Translations under genes and position numbers: made by a program
Source: Escherichia phage fEgEco12
DNA length: 64,000 bases
Strand: one strand, 5' to 3'
Sequence record: PP777464.1
Shown here: piece by piece, positions 2,442 to 16,160 of the stretch
Layout: each line of letters opens with the position of its first letter
How positions within the stretch are numbered: the first letter of the stretch is position 1
The notes under the pieces: generated by a model
Told to the model about the DNA's origin: nothing
The model's input: the letters and a program-made list of their open reading frames with translations, nothing else
The model's database searches: none

Positions 2442-2527
2442 TAGAATTTATTTAAAGTACTATCATTTTTTTGCGATAGTACTTTATAATAGTGTTTTAT
2501 TCATACACCAACGATAAGGGCAACAGC

Positions 2528-2794: not shown

Positions 2795-2801
2795 AAAGTA
2801 C

Positions 2802-2829
2802 TTGCAAACTATGTTTAAAGGCGTATAAT
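2802..2829 (+). promoter_or_regulatory. sigma70-like early promoter
   Basis: TTGCAA, 16 nt, TATAAT; followed by AGCGGGAAC/TTCCCGC hairpin. Confidence 0.6.
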
Positions 2830-2875
2830 GTTTTACATCGAGAGCGGGAACTCTTCCCGCCTATAACCTGGAGTA

Positions 2876-3112
2876 ATGAAAATGACTAATATGTATATGA
2901 CTGAAGTTAAAACCGTAAAAGATACTACCACGAATAAAACTACTTACTTACAGCGGATCTGTGGTGTATGGCAACGTATCAGCAAATCAAAGTACTTTAA
3001 ATTAACATCATATGCAAACCGTTCGGATTCATTCAGTACTGAAATAAAAGGTAATAAAGTACACCAATACGGCACTTATTATTATTATAGCCTGGACGCG
3101 ATTGCAGTATAA
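2876..3112 (+). CDS. hypothetical early protein
   Basis: ORF track; start 2876 or 2882, the latter better spaced from GGAG. Confidence 0.6.
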   Translation: MKMTNMYMTEVKTVKDTTTNKTTYLQRICGVWQRISKSKYFKLTSYANRSDSFSTEIKGNKVHQYGTYYYYSLDAIAV

Positions 3113-3142
3113 GCAGTTTACAAATCTTTACAATTGCCGGTA

Positions 3143-3171
3143 TTGACTTATTTTGTCAGTACTGGCATAAT
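3143..3171 (+). promoter_or_regulatory. sigma70-like promoter with no ORF downstream
   Basis: TTGACT, 17 nt, CATAAT; followed by conserved box TAGCCCATAGGGTGCGGGAGTGTATC. Confidence 0.45.
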
Positions 3172-3361
3172 GTATTCATTGGCAGATAAGCCGTAGCCCA
3201 TAGGGTGCGGGAGTGTATCTATAGAAAAAGTAGTTTATTACAGTTACAATTGTGCACCCGGTGGGTTAGCTGTTGTCATGGGGTATATTATGCCAGTACT
3301 TGATAATGCTGTCAATACTTTTTTTTACTATTCAGTACTGAAAACTATTTTTAAAAAGTAC

Positions 3362-3389
3362 TTGCAAACTATGTTTAAAGGCGTATAAT
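3362..3389 (+). promoter_or_regulatory. Consensus early promoter driving a non-coding element
   Basis: TTGCAA, 16 nt, TATAAT; no ORF before the next promoter at 3480. Confidence 0.55.
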
Positions 3390-3396
3390 GTTTTAC

Positions 3397-3478
3397 ATCA
3401 GGACGGGGAACGAAATAAGTAACTTCCCGTTAAGTAGCCCAGGAGTAAGGCACACGAAAAACTCCCCTGATAAAATAG
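3397..3478 (+). ncRNA. Candidate small RNA (about 80 nt)
   Basis: Promoter-driven, no start codon, predicted stem-loops; near-identical copy at 13650-13728, variant at 5947-6040. Confidence 0.35.
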
Positions 3479-3479
3479 T

Positions 3480-3507
3480 TTGACAAATGTTTTTAAAAGC
3501 GTATAAT
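3480..3507 (+). promoter_or_regulatory. sigma70-like promoter
   Basis: TTGACA, 16 nt, TATAAT upstream of 3540 gene. Confidence 0.6.
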
Positions 3508-3539
3508 ACTTACATCAACTACTGAATGAGGGTTACAAA

Positions 3540-4151
3540 ATGAAAACTATCACTACTACTACTTTCGTTATGGATTTTTCTGAATTGAACGCAGAACAAA
3601 AAACGTCAGCTATCGAACTGGTTCGGGAACGTGAAAAAAACTCAAACGACAATTATTTTTCTGAAAGTGAAATTGAATACTATAAAGAAACAGTACTACC
3701 GGAATATGGCATTAATGACGCTGAAATACAATTCAGTGGCTTTTGGTCCCAGGGTGACGGTGCATCAATCAGTACTGACCACGTTGACGCAGTGAAGTTT
3801 TTACGCAAGGTAAGAGCATTAACTAAGTATCGCTCAATCCGTCACTTGCTGAATGAAGATGATTTGGCGATGAGTGTAAAGCGTTCGCACTCCCACTACT
3901 CGCATGAGAATACTGTAAGCGGGTACATTGAATCGGCTTACACTGATTTAACCGCAAAACAAGAAACGTTAGTTAATGAGCTTGAGGAACTACTCACTGA
4001 AACTATTCGTGAATTATCCCGCAAGTTGTACCGTGATTTAGAGAATGCATATGAGGATCAATTCACTACTGAAAACATTACGGCACTGATTGAGGGTAAC
4101 GAGTATCAATTCAATGTTATTGATGGCGTAGTGGAATCAATCGAATATTAA
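3540..4151 (+). CDS. hypothetical early protein (203 aa)
   Basis: ORF track; promoter and RBS GAGGG; acidic protein, no family recognised. Confidence 0.7.
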   Translation: MKTITTTTFVMDFSELNAEQKTSAIELVREREKNSNDNYFSESEIEYYKETVLPEYGINDAEIQFSGFWSQGDGASISTDHVDAVKFLRKVRALTKYRSIRHLLNEDDLAMSVKRSHSHYSHENTVSGYIESAYTDLTAKQETLVNELEELLTETIRELSRKLYRDLENAYEDQFTTENITALIEGNEYQFNVIDGVVESIEY

Positions 4152-4163
4152 TTTAAAAAGTAC

Positions 4164-4191
4164 TTGCAAACTAAGTTTAAAAGCGTATAAT
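4164..4191 (+). promoter_or_regulatory. sigma70-like early promoter
   Basis: TTGCAA, 16 nt, TATAAT, then AGCGGGAATAGTTCCCGCT hairpin. Confidence 0.6.
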
Positions 4192-4243
4192 ACTTTATAT
4201 CGAGAGCGGGAATAGTTCCCGCTACTAATGAGGAATACTACAA

Positions 4244-4408
4244 ATGAATACTTTTACCTTCGCTCAATTGAACGCCCTGGATGTATTGTCTGATGCTTTG
4301 CGGGATGCAACTGAAAGCGGTTTATTTGACAATGTTGACATTCACCCTGATGTAATTAATAATTTTTGTGATGCTATCGCAGAAGTACTGGAAGATCTAA
4401 AAAAATAA
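4244..4408 (+). CDS. small hypothetical protein (54 aa)
   Basis: Below ORF-track cutoff; promoter, hairpin, RBS GAGGAA; open frame to TAA. Confidence 0.55.
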   Translation: MNTFTFAQLNALDVLSDALRDATESGLFDNVDIHPDVINNFCDAIAEVLEDLKK

Positions 4409-4496
4409 TAGAAAGTACTTGCAATTAGTTTTCAGTACTGTATAATGGTTTACATCAAAGGGAGAAATGGTTCTCCCTGGTAATGAGGAAAATACA

Positions 4497-4718
4497 ATGG
4501 CTAATATCACTACTCTTTCCCAACTGGAAGCACTGGTTAAATCTATGCGGGAACATGCTGACAAAATCGGCGTACAAGATCCAGCCGTTTGCTTCTGCGA
4601 CGAATTGAATGATGATACCCTGGTAATAGCAGAAGTCCAGGACGTTTCTAACTATTCCTCGCGTTACACTGGCGGCGTAGCAAATAAAGGTGACTTCTGT
4701 TTATACCTTACAAAATAA
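4497..4718 (+). CDS. hypothetical early protein (73 aa)
   Basis: ATG after hairpin GGGAGAA..TTCTCCC and RBS GAGGAAAA. Confidence 0.65.
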   Translation: MANITTLSQLEALVKSMREHADKIGVQDPAVCFCDELNDDTLVIAEVQDVSNYSSRYTGGVANKGDFCLYLTK

Positions 4719-4723
4719 CAACG

Positions 4724-4753
4724 CGGGGAGATAATAACTCCCCGTTACTTTTT
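4724..4753 (+). terminator. Rho-independent terminator
   Basis: CGGGGAG-ataataa-CTCCCCG then T-run. Confidence 0.6.
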
Positions 4754-4962
4754 CAGTACTGAATCATTTAATAGACGGATCTCGGCACCCGGTGGGTTAG
4801 TGACAGTTTCGTCTTGATGTAATAATTATGCCAGTACTGGATGCACTTGTCAACAACTATTTTTTCAAATACTTTTTATTAAAATACTTGCAATTAGTTT
4901 TTAAACGCGTATAATGTTTTGCATAGGGGGAGCGGTTCCCCTGGTAACTAAGGAATAAGAAA

Positions 4963-5199
4963 ATGCTTGAACAAATCAAATCAACGTCTGCGAATGTAAC
5001 GGGAACGGTAGTACACTTTACTAGTGATGAATCGCGGGGTGTACCCTATTGTGCTGTACATGTAAACACTGAGGGTAACTACTGGTTTACGGTTTACGGA
5101 TCATATTCATTTGGACGGCCTGGGCATCAAAAAATTCTGGATAAAGTACAACCAACGGGTAAAAATATCACGGCTGAAATGTTTTATAAAAAATCATAA
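4963..5199 (+). CDS. hypothetical early protein (78 aa)
   Basis: ORF track; promoter, hairpin GGGGGAGCGGTTCCCC, RBS AAGGAA. Confidence 0.65.
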   Translation: MLEQIKSTSANVTGTVVHFTSDESRGVPYCAVHVNTEGNYWFTVYGSYSFGRPGHQKILDKVQPTGKNITAEMFYKKS

Positions 5200-5283
5200 A
5201 GTACTTGATAATAGTTTTTAGTACTGTATAATATTTTACATCGCAAGGGGGAGCGGTTCCCCCTGGTAACTAAGGATAATCAA

Positions 5284-5583
5284 ATGAAAATTGCAATCAT
5301 CGCCCTGGCTTTATCTGTTTCCTCTTTCGCTGTTAATGCGTCATTAGATGTAAGTAGTGAAAAATTCATTCAGTGCACTGTTGCAATGACCGATGAAAGA
5401 ACTGGCGAGATTGTATTAAAGGATTTAGAGATCCAGCCGGAAGCATTTAAAAACGGCCCGTTCCATGAAGAAGACGAAAACGGTAGCACAACAATTTATT
5501 ATGATGCCAGTACTAAACGCGGTTCGGTCACTGTTATGGATACCGAGAAAGTAACTCATACCGGCGTTATTAATTGCCGTTGA
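5284..5583 (+). CDS. putative exported small protein
   Basis: N-terminal signal-peptide-like MKIAIIALALSVSSFAVNA; promoter and hairpin upstream. Confidence 0.6.
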   Translation: MKIAIIALALSVSSFAVNASLDVSSEKFIQCTVAMTDERTGEIVLKDLEIQPEAFKNGPFHEEDENGSTTIYYDASTKRGSVTVMDTEKVTHTGVINCR

Positions 5584-5604
5584 TAGATACTACGGGGTAA
5601 CATC

Positions 5605-5835
5605 ATGACTAAGCGAATTGTTTTACTTAACGAAAGCAGTACTACACAACTACTTAACGCCGTGCATTATGATATTGAAACGAGCGTTAATCTTATCAGT
5701 ACTGTAGTTCTGTTGGACACTGGAAAGGTAGCCAATGATAAAGCGATTGCAGGTATACTAACGGATCTTGTGCCTGGTAGCAGTGCACCAATAACGTTAA
5801 ATGGTAAAGTGTTTAATATTTTACTCACTGATTAA
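5605..5835 (+). CDS. hypothetical protein (76 aa)
   Basis: ORF track; RBS GGGG 7 nt upstream; terminator follows. Confidence 0.6.
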   Translation: MTKRIVLLNESSTTQLLNAVHYDIETSVNLISTVVLLDTGKVANDKAIAGILTDLVPGSSAPITLNGKVFNILLTD

Positions 5836-5841
5836 GTACAT

Positions 5842-5870
5842 AGCCCACCTGGTGGGCTTTTTTGTTTTTG
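5842..5870 (+). terminator. Rho-independent terminator
   Basis: AGCCCACC/GGTGGGCT hairpin then TTTTTTGTTTTT. Confidence 0.65.
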
Positions 5871-5917
5871 TAGTATCGTAGTACTGAGATACTTTGAAAA
5901 TAGTTTTAAAAAAGTAG

Positions 5918-5945
5918 TTGACATTACCACAGAAAAGCGTAGAAT
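5918..5945 (+). promoter_or_regulatory. sigma70-like promoter
   Basis: TTGACA, 16 nt, TAGAAT; long structured leader before 6069. Confidence 0.55.
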
Positions 5946-6068
5946 GTATTACATCAAGACGGGGAGCACTAAGTAGACCGCCAGTAAGTCGAACGAAAAA
6001 CTGGACACGTCGAGAAAACTTTGATACACTAATAAACGTAAACTAAACTTTAATTGAGGATTTATAAA

Positions 6069-6551
6069 ATGGCTAATGTAAAATCATTCATCAAAGCACT
6101 GGTAGCAAATGAAACTAACGTCGCGGCTGAGATCCTGGCTGAACTGGATAACGATACCATGAAAGCGGTACGCAATAATTTTAACATCGCGTACAGTACT
6201 GCGAAAGAACTACAAGCAAATAAAGCGGCAGAAATTGAAGCGGCAAAGGCGGCCCGTGAAGCAGAACTACAAGCAACAATCGAAAGTATTCAGGCGGCAG
6301 TAGTTGGATTGGATCTGGAAGTAGTTACAGAGATGGCACAAAAAGCCCTGGCGGTTAAGTATGGGGAAGACAAGCCAGAAGTAAAAGCCAAAAAATGGAT
6401 TCAGGAACGCGTAGCGGTAGTACTGGACAACGGGGAAGAATATCTGATTCCGGTGCGTGGTAACTGTATTGCGGTAGTACTGGACGCGATTAACTCCAGT
6501 GGTATGACTCGCGAGGAATGGATCGAAGCTCATCGCAAAGTTGAAGCATAA
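6069..6551 (+). CDS. hypothetical protein, Ala/Lys/Glu-rich (160 aa)
   Basis: ATG 8 nt after GAGGA; track start is an upstream TTG. Confidence 0.65.
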   Translation: MANVKSFIKALVANETNVAAEILAELDNDTMKAVRNNFNIAYSTAKELQANKAAEIEAAKAAREAELQATIESIQAAVVGLDLEVVTEMAQKALAVKYGEDKPEVKAKKWIQERVAVVLDNGEEYLIPVRGNCIAVVLDAINSSGMTREEWIEAHRKVEA

Positions 6552-6572
6552 CAATTAAAGTACTGAATCACT

Positions 6573-6600
6573 AGCCCACCTTAAACAGTGGGCTTTTTTG
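6573..6600 (+). terminator. Rho-independent terminator
   Basis: AGCCCAC..GTGGGCT hairpin then TTTTTT. Confidence 0.65.
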
Positions 6601-6826
6601 TGTCTATAGTATTCCAGGCCACCAGCACCGCCTAGAAACGATTCTAACGCATTAAACTGATTATCTGATGCATCGCCCTAGCTGGTGGCGTTAAGGTCGT
6701 TAGAATGCGATTGAGAGCGTTTAAAGTATTTTGCAAAAAGTAATAAAAAGTACTTGCACGATTAAGAGATTAGCGTATAATTAATTACATCAAGGCGAGA
6801 CACCTTAACTAACTGAGGATATAAAG

Positions 6827-6979
6827 ATGAATACTTATGAACTGGATTGTTTTACTTTACAAGTAATGTCAGTATGCAGTAAGAAAGATTGGTCATCAAA
6901 GGAATTTAAAGCAGTTATCGCGTGTGCAAAACACGGCAAGACTATCAATGAAACGGCATCAATCATTGATAAACTTTAA
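6827..6979 (+). CDS. small hypothetical protein (50 aa), paralog of 10703-10846
   Basis: Below track cutoff; promoter upstream; shared C-terminal pattern with 10703 gene. Confidence 0.5.
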   Translation: MNTYELDCFTLQVMSVCSKKDWSSKEFKAVIACAKHGKTINETASIIDKL

Positions 6980-6987
6980 AAAATAGT

Positions 6988-7016
6988 TTGACAATAGTTT
7001 TAAGTACTGGCATAAT
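6988..7016 (+). promoter_or_regulatory. sigma70-like promoter
   Basis: TTGACA, 17 nt, CATAAT. Confidence 0.6.
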
Positions 7017-7049
7017 ACATACATCAACTACTGAATAGGAATTAAAAAA

Positions 7050-7277
7050 ATGGCTATTATCATTACTCGCGTATCTGGTACTACTGGCAACGAACAAGTA
7101 GTTGCAGTCATTACCAACAAGGAAGGTGCGGAATTGCAAAATGCAATGAATACCTGGGCCGTTAATGAGTTCGGTCAGTGGGCAAGTGTAGCATACATTG
7201 AAACCTATCAAGTGCCGTCGATTAGTTTAACTGATTTGGGCGTTGAGCGTATCCTTTGCCTGGATGAATTAAATTAA
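7050..7277 (+). CDS. hypothetical early protein (75 aa)
   Basis: ORF track; promoter, RBS AGGAA. Confidence 0.65.
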   Translation: MAIIITRVSGTTGNEQVVAVITNKEGAELQNAMNTWAVNEFGQWASVAYIETYQVPSISLTDLGVERILCLDELN

Positions 7278-7362
7278 AAAAGTACTTGCAAAGTAAATCG
7301 AATAAAGTATAATACATTACATCAAGGGGAGAAATGATTCTCCCCACTACAAGGAAACTAAT

Positions 7363-7506
7363 ATGAAAACTTGTCAATGTGGTCAGAAATCTATTACGGG
7401 TTTAAAGCGGGGCGTTGCTCTTTGCCAGTACCATTATAATTTACAAGTATGGGGTAAAGAATGGGCCGACCAGGTGGAAGCAGCAAAGAAAGCAAAAAGT
7501 AAGTAA
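7363..7506 (+). CDS. small Cys-rich hypothetical protein (47 aa)
   Basis: Below track cutoff; promoter, GGGGAGAAATGATTCTCCCC hairpin, RBS AAGGAA; CxC...CxxH. Confidence 0.55.
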   Translation: MKTCQCGQKSITGLKRGVALCQYHYNLQVWGKEWADQVEAAKKAKSK

Positions 7507-7525
7507 AAATATTATCACAGTACTA

Positions 7526-7554
7526 TTGACATAGTTTGATAGTACTGGCATAAT
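7526..7554 (+). promoter_or_regulatory. sigma70-like promoter, second subtype
   Basis: TATTGACATAGTTTGATAGTACTGGCATAAT; same box upstream of 10433, 10703 and 18946 genes. Confidence 0.6.
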
Positions 7555-7595
7555 AGATTTTATCAAGACAACATATTAATTTAAGGAATACAAAA

Positions 7596-7919
7596 ATGGC
7601 TAAAACTATCATTAACACCGTTTCCCTGGCTGCAATCCGTGCAATCAATGTTGACGGTAAACGTTGGACTGATTCATATGGCAATACTTATCATTCTTGT
7701 CATGTAAGCGTCGAACTGGATAACGGTTTGAATGATCTGGCGGTTGAATCATTTACTTATGGCTATGAAGATGCATATCAACAAACGGCGTTAGATCTAT
7801 TAAAGGAATCAGTAGACGGGCTTAATACTGATGAAACCTCCCTTACTCGTTTGTGCAATGATCTTAATATCCCGTTGCATTGTACTGTACAGAATGTTAA
7901 ACGCAAAAAAGATCTTTAA
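7596..7919 (+). CDS. hypothetical protein, paralog of 14427-14750
   Basis: Shared RWTDSYGNTYHSC and FTYGY blocks and C-terminal VKRKKD. Confidence 0.7.
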   Translation: MAKTIINTVSLAAIRAINVDGKRWTDSYGNTYHSCHVSVELDNGLNDLAVESFTYGYEDAYQQTALDLLKESVDGLNTDETSLTRLCNDLNIPLHCTVQNVKRKKDL

Positions 7920-7999
7920 TTAGCTTTACTTTATGCAGATACTTTGATATAGTGTCTGCATAGGGGAAAGAAATTAAATTAACTTAAGAGGAACGTATA

Positions 8000-8269
8000 A
8001 TGAAAAATATCAGTACTTTAATCGACGCAGGTACACATGTTCGGCGGTCTATGGTTGCAACCAGTACTACAAAACAAGTAGCGAGCGGTTATCTTGTATT
8101 TGTGCACGATGGTAAACTACTGGAACGTTCAATCAATTTTGATGTTAAAAACAATTGCCGTTTTATTATCTTTAAGCGTGAGCAATATAAAATTGATTTA
8201 CCAGCAAAGCCCATTAGTGGGGCGTACAACGTGCAATCATTGTTTGAACGTCAACCATACACCTATTAA
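8000..8269 (+). CDS. hypothetical protein (89 aa)
   Basis: ORF track; RBS AAGAGGAA. Confidence 0.6.
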   Translation: MKNISTLIDAGTHVRRSMVATSTTKQVASGYLVFVHDGKLLERSINFDVKNNCRFIIFKREQYKIDLPAKPISGAYNVQSLFERQPYTY

Positions 8270-8320
8270 TCAAAACATCGTTAGCGGTCGATTCAGGCCG
8301 CTTATATTGGGGATTATACC

Positions 8321-8593
8321 ATGAACGTTAATCAAGTACTGAATGAAGTTGAAAGCATCATTAAACCAATGAAACGCATTGATGCTATGTTAACACCGGA
8401 AGAATGCCGCCTATATGAGCGTTATAGCGTCGAACAAGTCCAGGCGATGGCTATGGCTACCCCAGCCGTTAAACCGCCTGAGAATGCGTTACAGGACGTT
8501 ACAGGGGATTATATCATTAATCCAGTACTAGGGAAGATGGCTGCAATCACCGAAGATCAACAAGACTACTTAAGCCAGTACTTAAAAGGTTAA
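8321..8593 (+). CDS. hypothetical protein (90 aa)
   Basis: ORF track; RBS GGGGA. Confidence 0.6.
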   Translation: MNVNQVLNEVESIIKPMKRIDAMLTPEECRLYERYSVEQVQAMAMATPAVKPPENALQDVTGDYIINPVLGKMAAITEDQQDYLSQYLKG

Positions 8594-8598
8594 TTAAT

Positions 8599-8808
8599 AT
8601 GCTTACTGTACAGGATAAGATCGACATCTTAAAGGTTAATATGTATGTGATTGATGCAGTACCTGGTAAAGTATTTGCATACGATGACACCACTGTAAGC
8701 GATTTCTACTATAGCCAGGACGTGGGGGATCTTTCTGTACAGTCGGTTATTGAAAACGTAGTTAATGTAGCGTATGAGCATTTACTTTCAAATAGTACTT
8801 GCAATTAG
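8599..8808 (+). CDS. hypothetical protein (69 aa)
   Basis: ORF track; 3-prime end overlaps next promoter. Confidence 0.55.
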   Translation: MLTVQDKIDILKVNMYVIDAVPGKVFAYDDTTVSDFYYSQDVGDLSVQSVIENVVNVAYEHLLSNSTCN

Positions 8809-8877
8809 TTTTTAAACGCGTATAATGTTTTACATGAAGGGGAGAAATGATTCTCCCCACTAATTAAGGAATATGAA

Positions 8878-9024
8878 ATGAAAGCATCAAAAAAGAGTAA
8901 TACTAAGAAAGCACGTTCACCTTTCGCTGGGGTATTCCCTTTACGTTTCGTTGATGAAGTAGTTTCCTACCCGCCGGGCCTTACTCCTGAGATGGTAGAA
9001 AGTTTGCGTAAATCTAAAAAATAG
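8878..9024 (+). CDS. small basic hypothetical protein (48 aa)
   Basis: Below track cutoff; promoter, GGGGAGAAATGATTCTCCCC hairpin, RBS AAGGAA. Confidence 0.55.
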   Translation: MKASKKSNTKKARSPFAGVFPLRFVDEVVSYPPGLTPEMVESLRKSKK

Positions 9025-9105
9025 TACTTGCAATTAGTTTTTAGTACTGTATAATGTTTTACATGAAGGGGAGAAATGATTCTCCCCAATAACAGGAGAA
9101 TCAAA

Positions 9106-9258
9106 ATGAAACAATACAACGCTCGGTTTGATGTTACTATCGGTAACGGCAAAGGTCAATTCTCTTTCAGTACTCGCAAAAGTTATACAGAAAACTTCCT
9201 GCGTAATTGTGCACTGACCGCCGCACAAATTAAACATTACTTTCAGGCTAAAAAATGA
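9106..9258 (+). CDS. hypothetical protein (50 aa)
   Basis: ATG after RBS CAGGAG; track start lies in UTR hairpin. Confidence 0.6.
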   Translation: MKQYNARFDVTIGNGKGQFSFSTRKSYTENFLRNCALTAAQIKHYFQAKK

Positions 9259-9344
9259 AATCATTAGCTTATTACAGTTCGGCCCTGGTCGGTGCATTGA
9301 TCGCGGCGTTGTTAGTAACCTATCTATTCTTTATGGTGATTTAA
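9255..9344 (+). CDS. candidate hydrophobic micropeptide (29 aa)
   Basis: ATGA overlap with upstream stop; single predicted TM helix; speculative. Confidence 0.3.
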   Translation: MKSLAYYSSALVGALIAALLVTYLFFMVI

Positions 9345-9488
9345 ATGAATCCAACAGGTTTAAACTATAAAAGTTGTTCGGCGTTTACGAAAGCAAATAA
9401 AGCGAATGCACGTAAAGCGAAAGTACAGGAATACATCAAGCAAGGCATGACGCGAAAGGCGGCGATTCTAAAAGCTAAAAATAAATGA
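9345..9488 (+). CDS. small basic hypothetical protein (47 aa)
   Basis: TAAATG junction with upstream peptide; Lys/Ala-rich. Confidence 0.45.
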   Translation: MNPTGLNYKSCSAFTKANKANARKAKVQEYIKQGMTRKAAILKAKNK

Positions 9489-9605
9489 AAAAAGTGGTTG
9501 ACTCCGGTCAGCCATTTTGCTATTATATATTCATTGAGAGATAGCTCACTAGCCCACAGGGTGCATAAGTGTATCTATTATATAAGTATTGAGTACTGAA
9601 AACTA
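9489..9605 (+). repeat. Conserved intergenic module, copy 1 of 4
   Basis: TTGACTCCGGTCAG..TATTAT promoter inside near-palindrome, then box TAGCCCACAGGGTGCATAAGTGTATC; copies near 13487, 16755, 19507. Confidence 0.6.
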
Positions 9606-9698
9606 TTTTTAAAAAGTACTTGCAAACTATCTCAATAAGCGTATAATGTTTTACATCGAAAGGGGAAACGGTTTCCCCTGGTAATAAGGAAACAAATC

Positions 9699-10040
9699 AT
9701 GACTATCTCAATTGCTCAATCTAACTTTGAAAATGAAATCATCGCCCAGGCACTGCGTTTAAATGATGGTCGGGCCGAAATTAATTACGGTTTCAATTCA
9801 GGCGGTTGTGAAAAATATCAGTACTTTGTAACGGCTGATGGCGGTGTCCTGGGTATCAATACAGTTATTGTAAACATACAGAAAATTAATTTCAATGATC
9901 CAGACGATAGCCAGTTTTACATCACTGGCGTAGACGTGAACTATGAGGATGACTCACTAACTGATGATCACACTGGCGAGCGGTTAGAAAGTGCATACGG
10001 TGAAGATGATTATCAGTCCGGTCCAGAAGATTTCGAATAA
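9699..10040 (+). CDS. hypothetical protein, acidic C-terminus (113 aa)
   Basis: ORF track; promoter, hairpin GGGGAAACGGTTTCCCC, RBS AAGGAA. Confidence 0.65.
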   Translation: MTISIAQSNFENEIIAQALRLNDGRAEINYGFNSGGCEKYQYFVTADGGVLGINTVIVNIQKINFNDPDDSQFYITGVDVNYEDDSLTDDHTGERLESAYGEDDYQSGPEDFE

Positions 10041-10136
10041 TATAAAAAAATAGTTTGACAATAGATTATAGTACTGTATAATAGTTTACATCAAGGGGAG
10101 AAAAACTTCTCCCCACTAACAGAGAGAAAAAACAAA

Positions 10137-10349
10137 ATGGCTAATATCTGCACTGTACTGAAAAATGCAAAACAAGTTTTATTTTCTGATCACGATCATT
10201 TAAACAAGGATATTACTGGCGTTCGGAATATCAAAGATGTAAAAAGTGTTATGGGTATCTATTGCAATATGAAACGTGTTGGAACGTTCGGCGACAAAGT
10301 ACTATACCAGGCAGGGGATTACAATTTTACACTGACTATCATTAACTAA
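10137..10349 (+). CDS. hypothetical protein (70 aa)
   Basis: ORF track; promoter TTGACA..TATAAT, hairpin, RBS. Confidence 0.65.
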   Translation: MANICTVLKNAKQVLFSDHDHLNKDITGVRNIKDVKSVMGIYCNMKRVGTFGDKVLYQAGDYNFTLTIIN

Positions 10350-10432
10350 AAATATTATCACAGTACTATTGACATAGTTTGATAGTACTGACATAATAAC
10401 TTTTATCAACTACACTACTAAGGAATTAAAAA

Positions 10433-10612
10433 ATGGCTATCATCGCAAAAACTGAAATCGTTGGTCTGGATTCTATCATCATGACGTTTGAAGATCAAAA
10501 AGGTATGTATGTAGTTTCATATGGTGATTATGTTCGGGAGTATGAAACGGTAGACGAAGCCTTTGAAAGTTATATTCGCCAGGTGAATAAAGCATACGAC
10601 GACTACCGCTAA
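10433..10612 (+). CDS. small hypothetical protein (59 aa)
   Basis: Below track cutoff; subtype-2 promoter, RBS AAGGAA. Confidence 0.55.
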   Translation: MAIIAKTEIVGLDSIIMTFEDQKGMYVVSYGDYVREYETVDEAFESYIRQVNKAYDDYR

Positions 10613-10702
10613 AATATATTACCAGTACTATTGACATAGATTGATAGTACTGTATAATAAGTTTTATAAACAGTAGTTAACTTAACCTAAGAGAGAAATA
10701 AA

Positions 10703-10846
10703 ATGATCGCACTGGATTCATTCATCGACGCAGTACTGGCAAAAACTGGCGAGGATCTGACCGCAGAACAATACGCGATGATCGAGCAATGTCAGCAAAA
10801 CGGTAAATCGGTGAAAGATACTGTTAAGATTATCCGCAAGATGTAA
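10703..10846 (+). CDS. small hypothetical protein (47 aa), paralog of 6827-6979
   Basis: Below track cutoff; promoter, RBS GAGAGAAA. Confidence 0.5.
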   Translation: MIALDSFIDAVLAKTGEDLTAEQYAMIEQCQQNGKSVKDTVKIIRKM

Positions 10847-10951
10847 TATTATAGCCCACTGGTTAACGCTGGTGGGCTTTAATCATTTACCCTATACAAT
10901 GCCAGTACTAAACCGTTTATCTCGTTAGAATGCGTTACAGGACGTTTGACA

Positions 10952-11149
10952 ATGATTAGCATGAAATCAGTACAAAAACAAATAGAAACATTATCAAAAA
11001 TTAAACGTAAACAGTACTCGTTAGAATATACAATCAATGGTAACTATCATCTAATGAAAGAGAATAATTTCATTGTCATTGATGAATCATTGCAAGTTAT
11101 TAGTATAGTACTGAAAGCATTAATCAATGACAGAAAAAAATTAAAATAA
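10952..11149 (+). CDS. hypothetical protein
   Basis: ORF track (TTG at 10946); weak RBS; start uncertain. Confidence 0.4.
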   Translation: MISMKSVQKQIETLSKIKRKQYSLEYTINGNYHLMKENNFIVIDESLQVISIVLKALINDRKKLK

Positions 11150-11244
11150 TCTATTGACAATATCCTCCAGTACTGGCATAATACTTACATCAAGACGAGA
11201 ACGTCACTAACCCATAGGGTGCACAAATGTAACTATATAATATC

Positions 11245-11315
11245 GATCAATAAATGATCAAAAAAGTACTGGATCAATTTAGCATAAGGCGTATAATTCT
11301 GATCAATTCTTGATC
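11245..11315. promoter_or_regulatory. Cluster of five GATC sites in (T)GATCAA context around a promoter
   Basis: GATC at 11245, 11256, 11272, 11301, 11312 within 71 bp. Confidence 0.6.
11270..11297 (+). promoter_or_regulatory. Promoter with GATC-containing degenerate -35
   Basis: Consensus -35 replaced by TGGATC; -10 TATAAT; two GATC just downstream. Confidence 0.5.
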
Positions 11316-11478
11316 AAAGGCAATATACGCAGTTGAATTTATATAGACAGTACAAAGGCGTTACTATTCGTGGTAATGCTGGTGGATATGTAGTATCATA
11401 TGGTTTGAATAAGATAAACACTAGTAGTATTATTGTAGCATTACAGTACTATAGTATTTTTATAATGAGGTTAAAATA

Positions 11479-11736
11479 ATGGCAGTAGGATACGCGAAAG
11501 ACGGGGCCGAACAAGACGAGATTCATGCAGTGATTCAGGCCGCCGTTAACCACGCTAGAAAGCAAATTAACGCACAAAGAGAATCACTTGTACATTGCCT
11601 CGACTGCGGCGATAAAATCCCTGAGAATCGACGCCAGGCCGTTATAGGGTGCATGTATTGTATTACTTGCCAGGAGGATCATGATAGTACTTTTAAAAGA
11701 GATCCGCGTAATTGTTGGCATAGATCTATGAGATAA
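11479..11736 (+). CDS. TraR/DksA-family C4 zinc-finger protein
   Basis: CLDCGDKIPENRRQAVIGCMYCITCQ = C-x2-C-x17-C-x2-C spacing typical of TraR/DksA. Confidence 0.7.
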   Translation: MAVGYAKDGAEQDEIHAVIQAAVNHARKQINAQRESLVHCLDCGDKIPENRRQAVIGCMYCITCQEDHDSTFKRDPRNCWHRSMR

Positions 11737-11799
11737 AAAGTATTGACAGTACTGAAAGATAGTGTATAATGTTTTATATCTTAACTGAGGATAGTAATC

Positions 11800-12156
11800 A
11801 TGGGAATACAACATATCACGCGTACTACTGACAATGGCGAGATCACTGGCTATCAAGTACAGGGCAAAGTAGCACAATTGCAGTACTGGTTTGTTAAACG
11901 TGGAATCATTGCACCGGATCTTGATTATGACCGTGTAGCGTTTATTGATTCTCTTTATGTTGATCCTGATAGTCGGGGCAATGGTGAAGGTAACGAATTA
12001 ATGAATGCCTTTATTGATGCCGCCGATGATTCAGATTGTATCATCTTAGAATGCGATACGGGAGAAGATAACGCCTTTAATCTTAAAGAATGGTACGAAG
12101 GTTTCGGATTCGAGGTATTGATAGATAGTGAATATCCTATCATGATTTTATCATAG
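11800..12156 (+). CDS. minimal GNAT-like N-acetyltransferase (putative)
   Basis: Motif-A-like SRGNGEGNELMNAF and C-terminal NAFNLKEWYEGFGFE. Confidence 0.5.
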   Translation: MGIQHITRTTDNGEITGYQVQGKVAQLQYWFVKRGIIAPDLDYDRVAFIDSLYVDPDSRGNGEGNELMNAFIDAADDSDCIILECDTGEDNAFNLKEWYEGFGFEVLIDSEYPIMILS

Positions 12157-12234
12157 TACTTGCATTTAGTTTTCAGTACTGTTATAGTACTTGCATCAAG
12201 GGGAAACATCTTCCCCTACTAAGAGGAAATAAAA

Positions 12235-12423
12235 ATGGAAAACTTATCAAGTATTTTAGTACAAGATGATTTCGGTAATCCTGGAAGTGCTATCATTGTT
12301 CGGGGCAATAAAGCAACGTTTGTTATTGCTGGTGGACCCGTACAGCGTAGCATTAAAAATAATGCTGTTACCATTAATAATGTACGCTATCGCTTAGATA
12401 AAGAATTAATTCATAAACTGTAA
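12235..12423 (+). CDS. hypothetical protein (62 aa)
   Basis: ORF track; promoter, hairpin GGGGAAACATCTTCCCC, RBS; internal Chi. Confidence 0.6.
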   Translation: MENLSSILVQDDFGNPGSAIIVRGNKATFVIAGGPVQRSIKNNAVTINNVRYRLDKELIHKL

Positions 12424-12450
12424 TATTAATTTAATAGAGGATAACAATAA

Positions 12451-12774
12451 ATGTACATTCATACTACTGTCACAAAGGAAGTCCGTTGCCAGTTCGAAAG
12501 TATTCCGGGCGTATGTTTCATCACTGGTACGTTTTCCCCTGGTGATCGTGATAATCCAGTACTGTTACAGTTACGCCATCCATTATGGGATAAAGCATTT
12601 GATCTGCCGTTGAATGAATTCGCAACCACTGCTGATAAGTACATTAAAAATATTCGCGAGAATGATTGCCTATTCATTAATGCTTTTAGTGATGCCGCGT
12701 TAAGTGAGATCCATGCTGTATTGGTTGCAATCATGGAATCAATGGAGAAAACTATATTCAAACAAGGTGAATAA
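12451..12774 (+). CDS. hypothetical protein (107 aa)
   Basis: ORF track; RBS AGAGGA. Confidence 0.6.
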   Translation: MYIHTTVTKEVRCQFESIPGVCFITGTFSPGDRDNPVLLQLRHPLWDKAFDLPLNEFATTADKYIKNIRENDCLFINAFSDAALSEIHAVLVAIMESMEKTIFKQGE

Positions 12775-12857
12775 AAACTATTGACAATGCAATCCAGTAC
12801 TGTATAATAGTTTACATGAAGGGGAGAAATGATTCTCCCCACTAAGAGGAAAGAAAA

Positions 12858-13070
12858 ATGCAAGGTCAACTAATCGTTCGTAAATGGTCTGATACTAACG
12901 AAAAACCGTGGGATGTACAATACATCGCCCCAAATGGTGAATCCAGATATCAACCAGGTGTAACGCATAGTACTGAGCAATTCGCCGCCGCTCATCGCGA
13001 ACGTCTGTTACAATCAATGCAGCAAGGTTCCGGTGAAAAATTCATTCAGGATCATTGGCTGAAAGATTAA
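12858..13070 (+). CDS. hypothetical protein (70 aa)
   Basis: ORF track; promoter TTGACA..TATAAT, hairpin, RBS AGAGGAAA. Confidence 0.65.
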   Translation: MQGQLIVRKWSDTNEKPWDVQYIAPNGESRYQPGVTHSTEQFAAAHRERLLQSMQQGSGEKFIQDHWLKD

Positions 13071-13157
13071 AAAAGTACTTGCACAGTACTGAATAAAGTG
13101 TATAATGTTTTATATCGGAAGGGGAATAGTTCCCCTCCTAACAAAGAGGAAAGTATA

Positions 13158-13331
13158 ATGGTCCAGGTAGAATTAACAGTACTGAAAGATCTGTTTTATC
13201 GGATTGGTACTACTGGCGAATATCCGAAGGGTGATAATGCAAAACTTTACGTATCACTCGACTTATGGCAACGCGAACAATTAGCAACGGCCTGGCGTAA
13301 AGGCAAAGCAGATCGAGAGGTGAAAGCATGA
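13158..13331 (+). CDS. hypothetical protein (57 aa)
   Basis: ATG after hairpin and RBS AGAGGAAAG; track start in -10 box. Confidence 0.6.
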   Translation: MVQVELTVLKDLFYRIGTTGEYPKGDNAKLYVSLDLWQREQLATAWRKGKADREVKA

Positions 13332-13477
13332 AAGAATTCTTATTTGAAGTAGTGTTTCAAGGTGTCGGTAATAACCAACTGATTCGATCAAGTGGTTATA
13401 ATGTTAACCAGGCATGGAATAACATTAAACAAATGTACCCGAACGCTATCACATATCGCAACCCGAAAGAAGTTTAA
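13328..13477 (+). CDS. small hypothetical protein (49 aa)
   Basis: Below track cutoff; ATGA overlap with upstream stop. Confidence 0.45.
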   Translation: MKEFLFEVVFQGVGNNQLIRSSGYNVNQAWNNIKQMYPNAITYRNPKEV

Positions 13478-13486
13478 AAATATTTG

Positions 13487-13600
13487 AAAAAGGGATTGAC
13501 TCCGGTCAGTCCCTTTGCTATTATATACGCATAGAAACAAATTAGCCCACAGGGTGCATAAATGTATCTATTGTTTGCTGGTGGCTAGTACTGAAAACTA
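13487..13600 (+). repeat. Conserved intergenic module, copy 2
   Basis: Same TTGACTCCGGTCAG promoter and TAGCCCACAGGGTGCATAAATGTATC box; includes Chi at 13577. Confidence 0.6.
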
Positions 13601-13615
13601 TTTTTAAAAAAGTAC

Positions 13616-13643
13616 TTGCATTGTACTTAGAATCAAGTATAAT
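13616..13643 (+). promoter_or_regulatory. Promoter driving second candidate sRNA
   Basis: TTGCAT, 16 nt, TATAAT. Confidence 0.5.
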
Positions 13644-13649
13644 GTTTTA

Positions 13650-13728
13650 CATCAGGACGGGGAACGAAATAAGTAACCCCGTTAAGTAGTCCAGGAGTAA
13701 GACATACGAAAAACTCCCCTGATAAAAT
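13650..13728 (+). ncRNA. Candidate small RNA, copy 2
   Basis: Near-identical to 3397-3478; compensatory change in first stem (ACGGGG/CCCCGT). Confidence 0.35.
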
Positions 13729-13731
13729 AGT

Positions 13732-13759
13732 TTGACAATAGAAAGTAAACGAGTATAAT
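13732..13759 (+). promoter_or_regulatory. sigma70-like promoter
   Basis: TTGACA, 16 nt, TATAAT upstream of 13793. Confidence 0.6.
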
Positions 13760-13792
13760 ACTTACATCAACCACTGATAAGGAAACATTAAA

Positions 13793-14068
13793 ATGCGGAC
13801 TTTACTTACAGCTAACGAAATCGAGCAAGTACTGACTACTAATCTGGAACAATGGAAACGTGAAGCAGATATCCAGGCGGTTCAATGCCTTAACGATAAG
13901 TTAACGCCAGATGACTTAAGCACGATTGTTGATCCACAATTTTATGAAGATATTCACGACACGTCTTTAAGCGTCGAGGATGTACTTGATAAGCACTACA
14001 TTGATACTGATTTACATGTTTACGGTCGTAAAAACTTTATCACTATTCACGACATTTACAATACTTAA
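13793..14068 (+). CDS. hypothetical protein (91 aa)
   Basis: ORF track; promoter and RBS AAGGAAA. Confidence 0.65.
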   Translation: MRTLLTANEIEQVLTTNLEQWKREADIQAVQCLNDKLTPDDLSTIVDPQFYEDIHDTSLSVEDVLDKHYIDTDLHVYGRKNFITIHDIYNT

Positions 14069-14156
14069 GTATTGACAAAGTATCTTAGTACTGTATAATA
14101 GTTTACATCAAGTGAGGGGAAACGGTTCCCCTCCTAACAAAGAGAGAGAAATAAAA

Positions 14157-14339
14157 ATGGCTAAGTGCACTATCTGTAATAAAGAAATAGTATTAGTTCC
14201 AAGTGCCCGTGAACGTGCCGCTCGGTTCGGTGGCAAAGCGTCAGACTATACAAAAATGTTTACTGCCCATACAGCTTGCCAGGTAGCAAAACGTTCACAA
14301 GAAAGCGTAGAATTAATGCGTAAACTTTCCAAAAAATAA
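14157..14339 (+). CDS. small Cys-containing hypothetical protein (60 aa)
   Basis: ATG after hairpin and RBS; CTIC...C pattern. Confidence 0.6.
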   Translation: MAKCTICNKEIVLVPSARERAARFGGKASDYTKMFTAHTACQVAKRSQESVELMRKLSKK

Positions 14340-14426
14340 GTATTGACAAAGTATCTTAGTACTGTATAATAGTTTACATCAAGCGAGGGGAATAGTTCCC
14401 CTCCTAACAAAGAGAGAGAAATAAAA

Positions 14427-14750
14427 ATGGCTATGATCCTTGCCCAGAAAGTAGAATTGAAAATTGTAACCTCCTTTGACATTAACGTTAATCGGTGGAC
14501 TGATTCACACGGCAATACTTACCACTCTTGCTACGTGTCTGCGTTAATTGGCGACCGCTGGGAAGACCTGGGACACGAAACCTTTACATACGGTTACGGT
14601 ACACAAGGCGAATACACGGGCTTGGAGATCATTAAAGAAACCGTTATAGGTTTCAACCCGAAAGAAAAAGTTATTCATCGCATCGAGGAAGAGATCAACA
14701 AAGAAATAACAGTTCGCTACCACGATGTAAAACGTAAGAAAGACATGTAA
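14427..14750 (+). CDS. hypothetical protein, paralog of 7596-7919
   Basis: Promoter/UTR cassette 14339-14426 nearly identical to 14069-14156. Confidence 0.7.
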   Translation: MAMILAQKVELKIVTSFDINVNRWTDSHGNTYHSCYVSALIGDRWEDLGHETFTYGYGTQGEYTGLEIIKETVIGFNPKEKVIHRIEEEINKEITVRYHDVKRKKDM

Positions 14751-14772
14751 TAGAATCCATTTAAAGTACTAT

Positions 14773-14801
14773 TTGACATTGCCCAGATAGTACTTTATAA
14801 T
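14773..14801 (+). promoter_or_regulatory. sigma70-like promoter
   Basis: TTGACA, 17 nt, TATAAT. Confidence 0.6.
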
Positions 14802-14845
14802 AGACTCTAACTTGTAGTACTAACTCAACTAATAGGATGTATACC

Positions 14846-15241
14846 ATGATTACTAAATTCTACGCTACCCGTGAAGCTGCCCGTATTGTTGCACGCGAGG
14901 AAGGAGCAGCATTTAAAGACATGGGCAAAGATGCAACGAAAGGACAACGCTGGGCCGTACAGTTCAAAGAAATCTCTGATATTGTGAATTCACCTGAGCC
15001 AGTACTGACAGCAGCAGAACTAAAACGAGCGGATATGCTGGCGGCAATACTTGACGCACAAGATGAGTTTATCGCTGATTCTGATATCAAAGTACAGGTA
15101 AACCACACCGCATGGACTCACGCGGATCACCTGGCAAACCTTAAGCGTCCAAGTGAACTGATTCGCAACCAGAAAGAGATCCGACATGATCGTAAGGGTA
15201 ATCGTGTAACAGTATACAGTAAACGCCGCCAGGTTATCTAA
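14846..15241 (+). CDS. hypothetical protein, paralog of 2528-2794
   Basis: Shared N- and C-terminal blocks; RBS AGGA. Confidence 0.65.
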   Translation: MITKFYATREAARIVAREEGAAFKDMGKDATKGQRWAVQFKEISDIVNSPEPVLTAAELKRADMLAAILDAQDEFIADSDIKVQVNHTAWTHADHLANLKRPSELIRNQKEIRHDRKGNRVTVYSKRRQVI

Positions 15242-15263
15242 TAACTTGCAGTACTAACAACAC

Positions 15264-15288
15264 GGCGGGATCAGTTCCCGCCTTTTTT
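15264..15288 (+). terminator. Rho-independent terminator
   Basis: GGCGGGA-tcagt-TCCCGCC then TTTTTT. Confidence 0.7.
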
Positions 15289-15302
15289 ATAGGACAAACA
15301 AA

Positions 15303-15557
15303 ATGATTAAGGTTCAACTATATAAAGATAACATCTTACGGGTACACTATAAAGCACCTCAGAGAATCATCACAAAGGCCGTACAGCTTGCTAATGAGTT
15401 TATTAATGGTAACCTATTACCTAGGAAGTTAAGCAACGGGAAACTGCGTGTAATCGACGTGGACACTAACAACAGGATAGTAATCGAGAACACAGGAAAG
15501 ATAAACCTTTATGAGCATCAACAATACAATAAGAAAATAAAACTAATATCACGTTGA
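15303..15557 (+). CDS. hypothetical protein (84 aa)
   Basis: ORF track. Confidence 0.55.
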   Translation: MIKVQLYKDNILRVHYKAPQRIITKAVQLANEFINGNLLPRKLSNGKLRVIDVDTNNRIVIENTGKINLYEHQQYNKKIKLISR

Positions 15558-15610
15558 CAGTACTCAATTGTTTTAGTACTATGTACACATACCAACACGG
15601 GAGAAACAAA

Positions 15611-15829
15611 ATGAAATTATCTAAAATCGAAAAGAAAACTATTGATGAAGCAGTTAAGCACGGTTATACCTTTCGTAATGATTCACATTTTACCAATTTT
15701 CAACAAGGGTATCGTACTATTAAAAAACTAATTGACAAAGGTTTATTAGTTGAAGTCAATAACGGTAACGGTATCGAGTATCAACCAACACAGGACGCAT
15801 TTTATTTTAAGAAATATAATATTATCTAA
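15611..15829 (+). CDS. hypothetical protein (73 aa)
   Basis: Track start is the TTG of the -35 box; ATG after RBS GGGAG. Confidence 0.6.
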   Translation: MKLSKIEKKTIDEAVKHGYTFRNDSHFTNFQQGYRTIKKLIDKGLLVEVNNGNGIEYQPTQDAFYFKKYNII

Positions 15830-15886
15830 TTGACAGTACTCAAATGTTTTAGTACTATATGTACATACCAACACGGGGGAAACAAA

Positions 15887-16129
15887 ATGATTACTTTAGA
15901 AAAACGTATCAAAGAAACTACATCGCTGGTGGAACTGTTAACAGTACTCAAATGTAAAACAACACCATTCAGCACGCCGGACTTTATTAATATGGTTGAT
16001 GTTAATGGTCGCTATCGTATCACGGTCGAACAAGGAGCGGCGAAAGTATTCAGTACTAAAAACACGAAGGAAGTGATCCACGCCGTTAATGTTAAAAAAG
16101 TAGTTGCCATTGATAGTAAAGTACTGTAA
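15887..16129 (+). CDS. hypothetical protein (80 aa)
   Basis: Duplicated promoter as for 15611; ATG after RBS GGGGGA; internal Chi. Confidence 0.6.
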   Translation: MITLEKRIKETTSLVELLTVLKCKTTPFSTPDFINMVDVNGRYRITVEQGAAKVFSTKNTKEVIHAVNVKKVVAIDSKVL

Positions 16130-16160
16130 TATAGTTTCATTAACTCAAGGAGAACATGCA

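Follow-up and report, generated by a model that had tools for sequence, protein, structure and literature searches.

The box that recurs in the first 19.6 kb of a 64,000-nucleotide stretch of Escherichia phage fEgEco12 DNA (PP777464.1; the whole stretch is the window in what follows) very probably belongs to a structured RNA element that sits at the 5′ end of early transcripts. An earlier note on this DNA had read the box as a shared regulatory or processing site. That reading is partly supported, but it overlooks that the box would be the invariant core of a structured RNA of about 48 nt, running from the transcription start. As judged by sequence comparison, the element is an undescribed RNA family of RaK2-like phages.

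From its similarity to related genomes, the first 20–21 kb of the window is the early region of an Asteriusvirus-type jumbo coliphage. Positions 9000–14000 are up to 98% identical (JNE01) to jumbo coliphages of the PBECO4/121Q group (Asteriusvirus). The counterpart of this stretch in vB_Ec-M-J falls within an annotated direct terminal repeat (1–21525), and the corresponding region is annotated as a terminal repeat in the records of Muenster, CBB and fENko-Kae01; we therefore take the first 20–21 kb to be a direct terminal repeat. It is crowded with small ORFs on the + strand, and hardly any small early gene lacks a promoter of its own. About 45 strong promoters lie in 20 kb, 12 of which are perfect (12/12) TTGACA-16/17-TATAAT, and positions 1–20000 contain 109 sigma-70-like sites where 71 are expected. 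Nearly all the messages predicted from the gene promoters open with a 5′ hairpin, and a ribosome site and ATG come next; the hairpins are GC-rich and lie a few bases past the start (e.g., ACAUCAAGGGGAGAAAUGAUUCUCCCC). No tRNA or tmRNA was found in the window. Compared with PBECO4 (L026), positions 1–22000 show some 10 gene-sized insertions, deletions or replacements (ORFs 5605–5835, 11800–12156 and 17272–17676 are examples) and are otherwise 90–97% identical, so that by this measure the early region is highly plastic.

With up to two mismatches allowed, the box (TARCCCAYMGGGTGC / TAGCCCAYAGGGTGC) occurs nine times in the window where 0.02 occurrences are expected, at 3194, 9550, 11208, 13543, 16817 and 19564 on the + strand and at 1099, 3254 and 4785 on the − strand. 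A covariance model of the element, described below, finds 10 copies in the window (six +, four −), none of them past 19.6 kb; the fourth − strand copy (1300–1347) comes from the model. The features are as follows.

9491–9518, + strand: terminator-like 12-bp hairpin AAAGTGGTTGAC-TCCG-GTCAGCCATTTT, containing the −35 hexamer; −16.9 kcal/mol
9498–9526, + strand: sigma-70 promoter TTGACT-17-TATTAT, with a predicted start at the A at 9533
9532–9579, + strand: RNA element copy of module 1; covariance model 55.8 bits, E 2e-10
9535–9538 with 9545–9548, + strand: P1 of the 9532 copy, loop AGAUAG, from the alignments
9550–9564, + strand: core box of the 9532 copy
9559–9564 with 9571–9576, + strand: P2 of the 9532 copy
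9620–9647, + strand: second promoter TTGCAA-16-TATAAT, A/T-rich upstream, driving a 5′-hairpin leader and ORF 9699–10040
13489–13572, + strand: module 2, with hairpin 13489–13516, promoter 13496–13524 and RNA element 13530–13572 of the short A-rich leader type, which has no P1 stem; 41.8 bits
16758–16846, + strand: module 3, with hairpin 16758–16785, promoter 16765–16793 and RNA element 16799–16846; 60.2 bits
19510–19593, + strand: module 4, short-leader type, with hairpin 19510–19537, promoter 19517–19545 and element 19551–19593; 39.7 bits
3143–3223, + strand: promoter TTGACT-17-CATAAT (3143–3171) and RNA element 3177–3223, the + member of a tail-to-tail pair; 42 bits
3239–3315, − strand: promoter TTGACA-17-CATAAT (3315 down to 3287) and RNA element (model-matched part 3239–3275, the full element extending to about 3283), the − member of the same pair, the two 3′ ends being 15 nt apart; 30.3 bits
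11154–11237, + strand: promoter TTGACA-17-CATAAT (11154–11182) and RNA element 11190–11237, without an ORF of its own; 54.3 bits
4724–4853, − strand: stand-alone unit of about 105 nt, with promoter 4853 down to 4825, element 4770–4817, then CAGTACTG, then a bidirectional terminator hairpin 4744 down to 4724; 49.7 bits
1084–1166, − strand: RNA element 1084–1131 and promoter TTGCTT-16-TATAAT at about 1139–1166; 48.1 bits
1300–1382, − strand: divergent copy, with element 1300–1347 and promoter TTGACT-16-TATAAT (1382 down to 1355); 25.8 bits, E 0.002
1263–1282, + strand: degenerate copy facing 1300–1347, with the P2-like hairpin AGGGTGCGGGAGTGTATCCT alone, then T7; it scores as a terminator

Four repeated modules had been described as near-identical, each with a promoter TTGACT-17-TATTAT whose −35 lies in a palindrome that might double as a terminator. 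All four are present with this promoter at the positions listed, and each contains the box. Their mean column identity is 79% over about 165–190 nt, and the modules at 13487 and 19507 lack the 5′ hairpin P1 and are 5 nt shorter. The palindrome forms a 12-bp stem of −16.9 to −19.5 kcal/mol, and the stem at 9491 differs from the other three by compensatory changes that retain pairing. Its terminator-like character was borne out, as an independent scan recovered the hairpin and the matching hairpin of phage G17 has been annotated as a terminator by others. Such a hairpin enclosing the −35 is found in 4 of the 10 window copies and is absent from the other six; RaK2 and Yen9-03 also have copies of this design. 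The box was also located after the ORF-less promoters at 3143 and 11154, where it had been reported, and the further occurrence reported near 1265 proved to be a degenerate copy in which only the 3′ half is kept, followed by a T-run. The four − strand copies, each with its own promoter, had not been noticed before.

The position of the element relative to its promoter is closely fixed. The box starts 18–25 nt past the −10 hexamer in every copy, and in 86 of the 115 copies found by the covariance model the −10 ends 5 nt before model position 1. From this spacing we infer that transcription starts at the A of a conserved CA, which for the + copies of the window gives predicted starts at 3178, 9533, 11191, 13531, 16800 and 19552. 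A sigma-70 match of at least 9/12 is present at the fixed distance in 93% of the 115 copies, compared with 2.6% of random sites, in agreement with the promoter assignment made previously. The fixed distance to a near-consensus sigma-70 promoter thus places the element at bases +1 to about +48 of a predicted transcript that has no ORF. No ORF was found between the element and the next promoter. A small peptide was also considered, and inspection of the element sequence found no start codon with a usable ribosome site. The box promoters are the early-region promoters without an ORF; most have a 17-bp spacer and an imperfect −10 (TATTAT, TATACT or CATAAT), and the perfect TATAAT is commoner in the gene promoters. 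On these predictions about a quarter of the early promoters of the terminal repeat would launch a box RNA, as would a quarter to a third of the strong ones across the phage group.

The structure was derived by comparative analysis. Fifty-four copies from the window and from RaK2, CBB, GAP32, BF, fHe-Yen9-03 and Munch were aligned, and a covariance model built from 16 copies of identical geometry found 115 copies in 17 sources, with E down to 1e-12. The element comprises the 5′ hairpin P1, the invariant core CCC-AYA-GGGUG and a second, weak hairpin P2; the columns that are invariant in the 54-copy alignment are CC.A..GGGT. P1 has a stem of 4–5 bp, a purine- or A-rich loop of 6–7 nt (GNGAAA, AGAUAA or AGAACAA) and 0–2 spacer bases. 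In the unfitted 54-copy alignment a hairpin of at least 3 bp is present in 52 of the copies, most with a common P1 geometry, and the mean P1 hairpin score is 9.67, compared with 6.68 in shuffles (shuffle maximum 7.81). Compensatory double changes occur at all four P1 pairs, in 40–49 of about 112 sequences each, with 91% of cells paired, and sliding the partner by 1–3 columns reduces the pairing of the whole structure (P1 + P2) to 35–54%. This covariation, together with the 33 distinct P1 stems and the loss of pairing on sliding, is strong evidence for a single-stranded (RNA) fold. Two paralogous lineages of P1, UGGC-AGAUAA-GCCG and AGCA-AGAACAA-UGCU, are retained across genera. A minority of copies, including those at 13530, 19551 and 3239 (−) of the window, have no P1 stem and keep the A-rich run as a 5′ tail; these have orthologues in CBB, GAP32, RaK2 and Munch. 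Because the stemless copies keep it, the A-rich run seems to be the part of P1 that matters.

The core itself can pair in two ways. P2 joins GGGUG to a segment that lies 8 nt further on and reads YRYYY in 100 of the 115 copies, with about 90% of cells paired; the 5′ strand is invariant, so that all the changes are one-sided. In the alternative, the core forms a mini-hairpin RCCC-AYA-GGGU that is 98% paired. Its R:U pair varies between A-U and G-U, and its inner C:G pair is replaced by U:A, on both sides, in two independent copies (CBB 16111 and Yen 4611). The two folds are mutually exclusive and of similar energy (−4.1 vs −3.5 kcal/mol in the coliphage copies). The loop of P2 is GGAGAU in 13 copies and GGAGGU in four, and many others have AUAAAU, AUAAGU or ACAAAU.

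Several further interactions were considered and rejected. A third helix between GC plus loop bases and the 3′ segment has just 62% of cells paired. A three-way junction in which UAG pairs with CUA, and a kissing interaction of the AGAUA loop with UAUCU, were examined by eye on the alignments and are not consistent between classes. Minimum free energy folds of whole single RNAs disagree between copies and are uninformative except for the terminators.

The cassette occurs in either orientation relative to the adjacent gene promoter. In the + copies an A/T-rich stretch follows the element, and then a second promoter serving a gene, within 25–70 nt; no terminator belonging to these copies was found. 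In the − copies the cassette is directed away from the gene promoter and a hairpin-plus-U terminator lies 20–60 nt past the element, giving predicted RNAs of about 75–105 nt. Most unpaired − copies, unlike the + copies, combine a promoter of their own with a Rho-independent terminator with a U tail. Orthologous copies on the − strand that end at terminators are kept across genera, for example at RaK2 16268 and 23336, window 4770, CBB 10219, GAP 11493, Yen 6487, BF 9090, and Munch 3307 and 12000 (all −). All the phages examined have tail-to-tail pairs of one + and one − copy toward the ends of the repeat, and in 9 of 14 pairs the 3′ ends are exactly 15 nt apart.

These inward-facing pairs are kept across genera, near both ends of the terminal repeat. 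Those with a 15-nt gap include window 3177–3290 and, in related sequences, L002 987–1097, 3797–3907 and 20819–20929; L004 2403–2513, 5232–5342 and 21513–21623; L003 2548–2659; and L005 3693–3803. A transcript of a paired cassette would hold the element and its near-complement, able to form a stem of 14–16 bp, and the two transcripts of a pair would be fully complementary to one another.

The earlier note had also named the outcome that would count against its reading, namely recent duplications with no conservation in related phages. The copies are not of this kind, as no fewer than five genera of RaK2-like phages have kept the element: Asteriusvirus, Alcyoneusvirus, Mimasvirus, Eneladusvirus and Munch-like phages. 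The model finds copies in RaK2, GAP32, CBB, BF, Yen9-03, Munch and metagenomic relatives, and the module is seen by BLAST in RaK2, K64-1, Muenster, GAP32, CBB, BF and in Yersinia, Erwinia and Salmonella jumbo phages. A scan of IMG/VR with an exact pattern returned jumbo-phage contigs of 345–378 kb and five shorter metagenomic contigs of 4–109 kb. A 12-nt core is invariant across the genera, with flanks that are 69–77% identical or unrecognizable. No Rfam 15 family matched the window at gathering score, and at the elements none matched with E up to 5 (bases 1–21000). The core sequence returned unrelated primers only from the searchable literature. In papers on CBB and its relatives, sigma-70-like promoters are described (together with UP elements in the CBB paper), but the box is not. 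No copy was found in host DNA (E. coli genomes, E up to 10), and within the 64-kb window sequence complementary to the core was found only in the elements themselves.

The architecture of the cassette resembles that of the promoter-early stem-loop (PeSL) cassettes of T4-type phages (Arbiol 2010, PMC2839356; Comeau 2014, PMC4122927), with an RNA family added. The likeness is one of architecture: both are small composite terminator/promoter units with host sigma-70 promoters, repeated between small, functionally uncharacterized genes in plastic early regions. An early sigma-70 promoter joined to a stem-loop or terminator, as required of a PeSL, is found in four window copies. Here, however, the hairpin contains the −35 and is present in only 4 of the 10 window copies, there is little sign of indels at the cassettes in the comparison with PBECO4, and the cassette adds a conserved structured 48-nt non-coding RNA that lies outside the PeSL description.

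The put RNA of HK022, a two-stem antiterminator RNA that promotes terminator read-through by binding the β′ zinc-binding domain of RNA polymerase, is an analogue in structure and position. PutL lies directly downstream of PL, its structure begins at A3, and a possible −10-like pause element follows (PMC9378689). The element studied here likewise lies directly after an early phage promoter and would have two stem-loops, with a possible −10-like pause element after it; its P1 is well supported, and the changes in its P2 are all one-sided. It differs in being about 48 nt long, compared with about 70 for put, in having no recognizable sequence similarity, and in occurring as 10 copies per repeat in both orientations, several without a downstream gene. 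A likeness to the nut sites of phage lambda can also be drawn. These comprise boxA and a boxB hairpin bound by the N protein, and here too a promoter-proximal RNA signal keeps a purine-rich loop on a hairpin of variable stem. In contrast, the P1 loops are of 6–7 nt (GNGAAA, AGAUAA, AGAACAA) and are not GNRA-like pentaloops, and the conserved core has no counterpart in nut. The boxA consensus (CGCUCUUA / UGCUCUUUAACAA) is absent from the 115 aligned copies, and no N-like protein was identified.

Two further comparisons concern RNAs as products. The − copies resemble in layout the Hfq-binding small RNAs of bacteria and prophages, which are terminated and have their own promoter: most of the unpaired ones combine a promoter of their own, a structured 5′ domain rich in A (ARN-like), a linker of A/U-rich sequence and a terminator of the hairpin-plus-U kind, in about 100 nt. 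The likeness does not extend to the + copies, which lack a terminator; no target complementarity was found in the 64-kb window, and no similar stretch in E. coli genomes. The long direct terminal repeat of PA5oct, a distantly related jumbo myovirus dependent on host RNA polymerase, is reported to contain two highly transcribed ORF-less RNAs of 236 and 451 nt (PMC7318152), so ORF-less RNAs of such a kind exist in the clade. Homology with them was rejected, as the covariance model finds no element in the 39-kb PA5oct terminal repeat (best match E 1.3).

We tentatively favor the explanation that the box RNA acts in trans through a partner, which we regard as possible rather than probable. The cassette would be a composite transcription unit of the early region under a near-consensus host sigma-70 promoter. 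In four of the copies, the terminator hairpin of the upstream gene also encloses the −35, an arrangement that would insulate the new transcript and define its 5′ end. The promoter would launch a non-coding RNA that begins with the conserved structured element (its first 48 or so bases), made up of the A-rich segment (usually the P1 loop), 1–2 spacer bases and the invariant core UAR-CCC-AYA-GGGUG, which could fold either as the CCC/GGG mini-hairpin or with GGGUG paired to the downstream YRYYY. The RNA would itself be the product, an early small RNA or leader domain made from many copies and predicted to be abundant. Its invariant core and A-rich segment would be recognized by a conserved partner, either a host protein found throughout the Enterobacterales or an early phage protein, and it may act stoichiometrically during host takeover as a decoy, a sponge or a component of a ribonucleoprotein. 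The − copies would be released as terminated RNAs of about 75–105 nt, and the + copies would read on into the next promoter and gene, with the element as the 5′ domain of a longer transcript.

Several observations point to the RNA as the product: the cassette occurs in either orientation with several copies lacking a downstream gene, the − copies look like ordinary terminated small-RNA genes, and fusion to the upstream terminator would ensure a clean 5′ end. Ten copies per repeat correspond to 20 per genome, a number that suggests a stoichiometric role. On the other side, the starts, ends and abundance of the box RNAs are predictions, no candidate for the partner protein was found, and the element shares no homology with the PA5oct RNAs. 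Because the + copies lack a terminator, they could yield a discrete small RNA only through processing or weak termination. The window holds no complementary target and the host no similar sequence, which leaves no candidate for a mode of action by base pairing. The strict placement at the 5′ end fits equally well with a co-transcriptional role in cis on RNA polymerase.

Such a put-like action on the polymerase is, by analogy, the main rival, because putL, too, starts at base 3 of an early transcript; we consider it rather unlikely all the same. The nascent 5′ RNA would fold on emerging and, like put or nut, bind the host polymerase, alone or with a phage or Nus factor, making it resistant to pausing and termination so that it reads through scattered early terminators. 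The constant start of the element at +1 or +2 of an early promoter and its two hairpins are as expected of such a signal, and there are several intrinsic terminators on the + strand of the early region, four of them fused to box promoters. A −10-like TATWAT follows the element in many copies and could give a sigma-dependent pause, as proposed for putL, and the purine-rich GNGAAA loops of P1 recall those of boxB. Yet read-through is hardly needed where almost no early gene lacks a strong promoter of its own (about 45 in 20 kb), and the − copies and tail-to-tail pairs serve no genes, so that read-through there would yield antisense RNA. The element is also short for a put RNA (about 48 nt vs about 70), lacks a boxA-like sequence, and is present in 10 copies per repeat where HK022 has two.

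The remaining explanations are less likely. That the element is a module for the stability or processing of mRNA, as the earlier reading allowed, is improbable: P1 would be a generic stabilizing 5′ hairpin, and the core with its A/U-rich tail a site at which RNase E, RNase III or a RegB-like enzyme, of host or phage, times the decay of early messages. Nearly all early mRNAs are predicted to start with a 5′ hairpin a few bases past the start, the P2 loop is often GGAG-like (GGAG is the target of RegB of T4), A/U-rich single-stranded sequence lies 3′ of the element, and the tail-to-tail pairs would form duplexes of at least 14–16 bp that would suit RNase III. However, a cleavage site needs neither an exact position at the 5′ end nor a promoter of its own, the box is missing from most early genes, GGAG is missing from many copies, and the stand-alone terminated copies have no message to regulate. 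We think it very unlikely that the box is instead a DNA operator, in which the quasi-palindrome RCCC-N3-GGGY (+20 to +32) is bound by a dimeric protein, from phage or host, to block or modulate the box promoters, the RNA fold being incidental. The core is indeed partly palindromic (ACCC-AYA-GGGT), perfectly so in copies from Yersinia phage (ACCCTATAGGGT), its distance from the promoter is fixed and both orientations occur. But the conservation is asymmetric, with the TGC to the right of GGG invariant and no mirror on the left, and the change of the inner C:G to U:A on both sides in CBB 16111 and Yen 4611 is what an RNA helix, not a protein half-site, leads one to expect. Moreover, the covariation of P1 without conservation of its sequence is explained by a single-stranded fold only, and the downstream YRYYY (100 of 115 copies) suits pairing with GGGUG. 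Most unlikely of all is a PeSL-type evolutionary cassette whose repeats persist as homology for recombination, or selfishly, with a functionless box. The composite terminator/promoter architecture is like that of T4-type PeSLs (PMC4122927), gene-sized indels abound between close relatives, and one breakpoint in the comparison with PBECO4 lies inside the module at 13487, at about 13596. That, though, is about one breakpoint in 10 (one genome pair), which is no enrichment at modules, and the core is invariant despite diverged flanks. The maintenance of P1 by compensatory changes implies selection on the RNA, not merely on homology.

On a bolder reading, which we hold to be doubtful, the element would represent a new class of phage RNA effector: either a compact, protein-independent analogue of put, in lytic jumbo phages, that reprograms the host polymerase from the first 50 bases of the transcript, or a 20-copy decoy. 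The decoy may neutralize a conserved enterobacterial RNA chaperone, ribonuclease or immunity protein in the first minutes of infection. A conserved RNA made from early promoters points to an RNA-based step in host takeover that has hitherto gone unexamined. The element predates the divergence of genera that infect Escherichia, Klebsiella, Cronobacter, Pectobacterium, Serratia, Yersinia and Salmonella. RaK2-like jumbo phages are candidates for therapy, and their early program is almost unannotated. Within this phage group the motif can serve to mark the early region and terminal repeat, and it is a candidate for a new Rfam family; the covariance model, the exact predicted 5′ ends and the short invariant core offer starting points for experiments.

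Pfam searches on the genes downstream of the modules gave one clear match and otherwise weak ones, so that no functional clue comes from them. The match is ORF 11479–11736, the gene that comes next after the ORF-less box unit at 11154; it encodes a DksA/TraR-type C4 zinc-finger protein (E 3.7e-9). Proteins of the DksA/TraR family bind in the secondary channel of RNA polymerase.

The early region has other repeated features. The 8-bp palindrome CAGTACTG occurs 63 times in the window, where 0.7 occurrences are expected, and is dense in 1–21000 and 38000–64000. It adjoins the −10 in most perfect early promoters (TTGACA-N9-CAGTACTG-TATAAT), overlaps the −35 of promoters of the TTGCAA class (AGTACTTGCA), and is found 3′ of most box elements; pairs of it make terminator-like hairpins. 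It may be an operator for some regulator or an RNA pairing motif. A second repeated leader of about 80 nt, apparently structured (AUCAGGACGGGGAACGAAAUAAGUAAC...CUCCCCUGAU), is present at 3398–3480 and 13640–13720 with few differences, and is placed between a promoter of the TTGCAA/TTGCAT type and a further TTGACA promoter. Strong + strand terminators at 5842–5858 and 6573–6594 have stems that begin with AGCCCACC (e.g., AGCCCACCTGGTGGGCT, then a T-run) and resemble the box core TAGCCCAC; the likeness may be fortuitous, or it may hint at how the box evolved.

The window contains 13 copies of the E. coli Chi sequence GCTGGTGG, where 0.5 are expected. Twelve of these lie in 578–19632 and the other at 60313; 10 of the 12 in the terminal repeat are on the + strand, and two lie within modules (13577 and 19625). 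This enrichment suggests that the genome ends are protected from RecBCD. The first 1.7 kb or so of the window (1–1690) has no convincing ORF and may be a terminus-proximal control region: it contains many copies of CAGTACTG, three box-type units, opposed Chi sites at 578 (−) and 590 (+), and direct repeats at 1545–1575 and 1598–1628.
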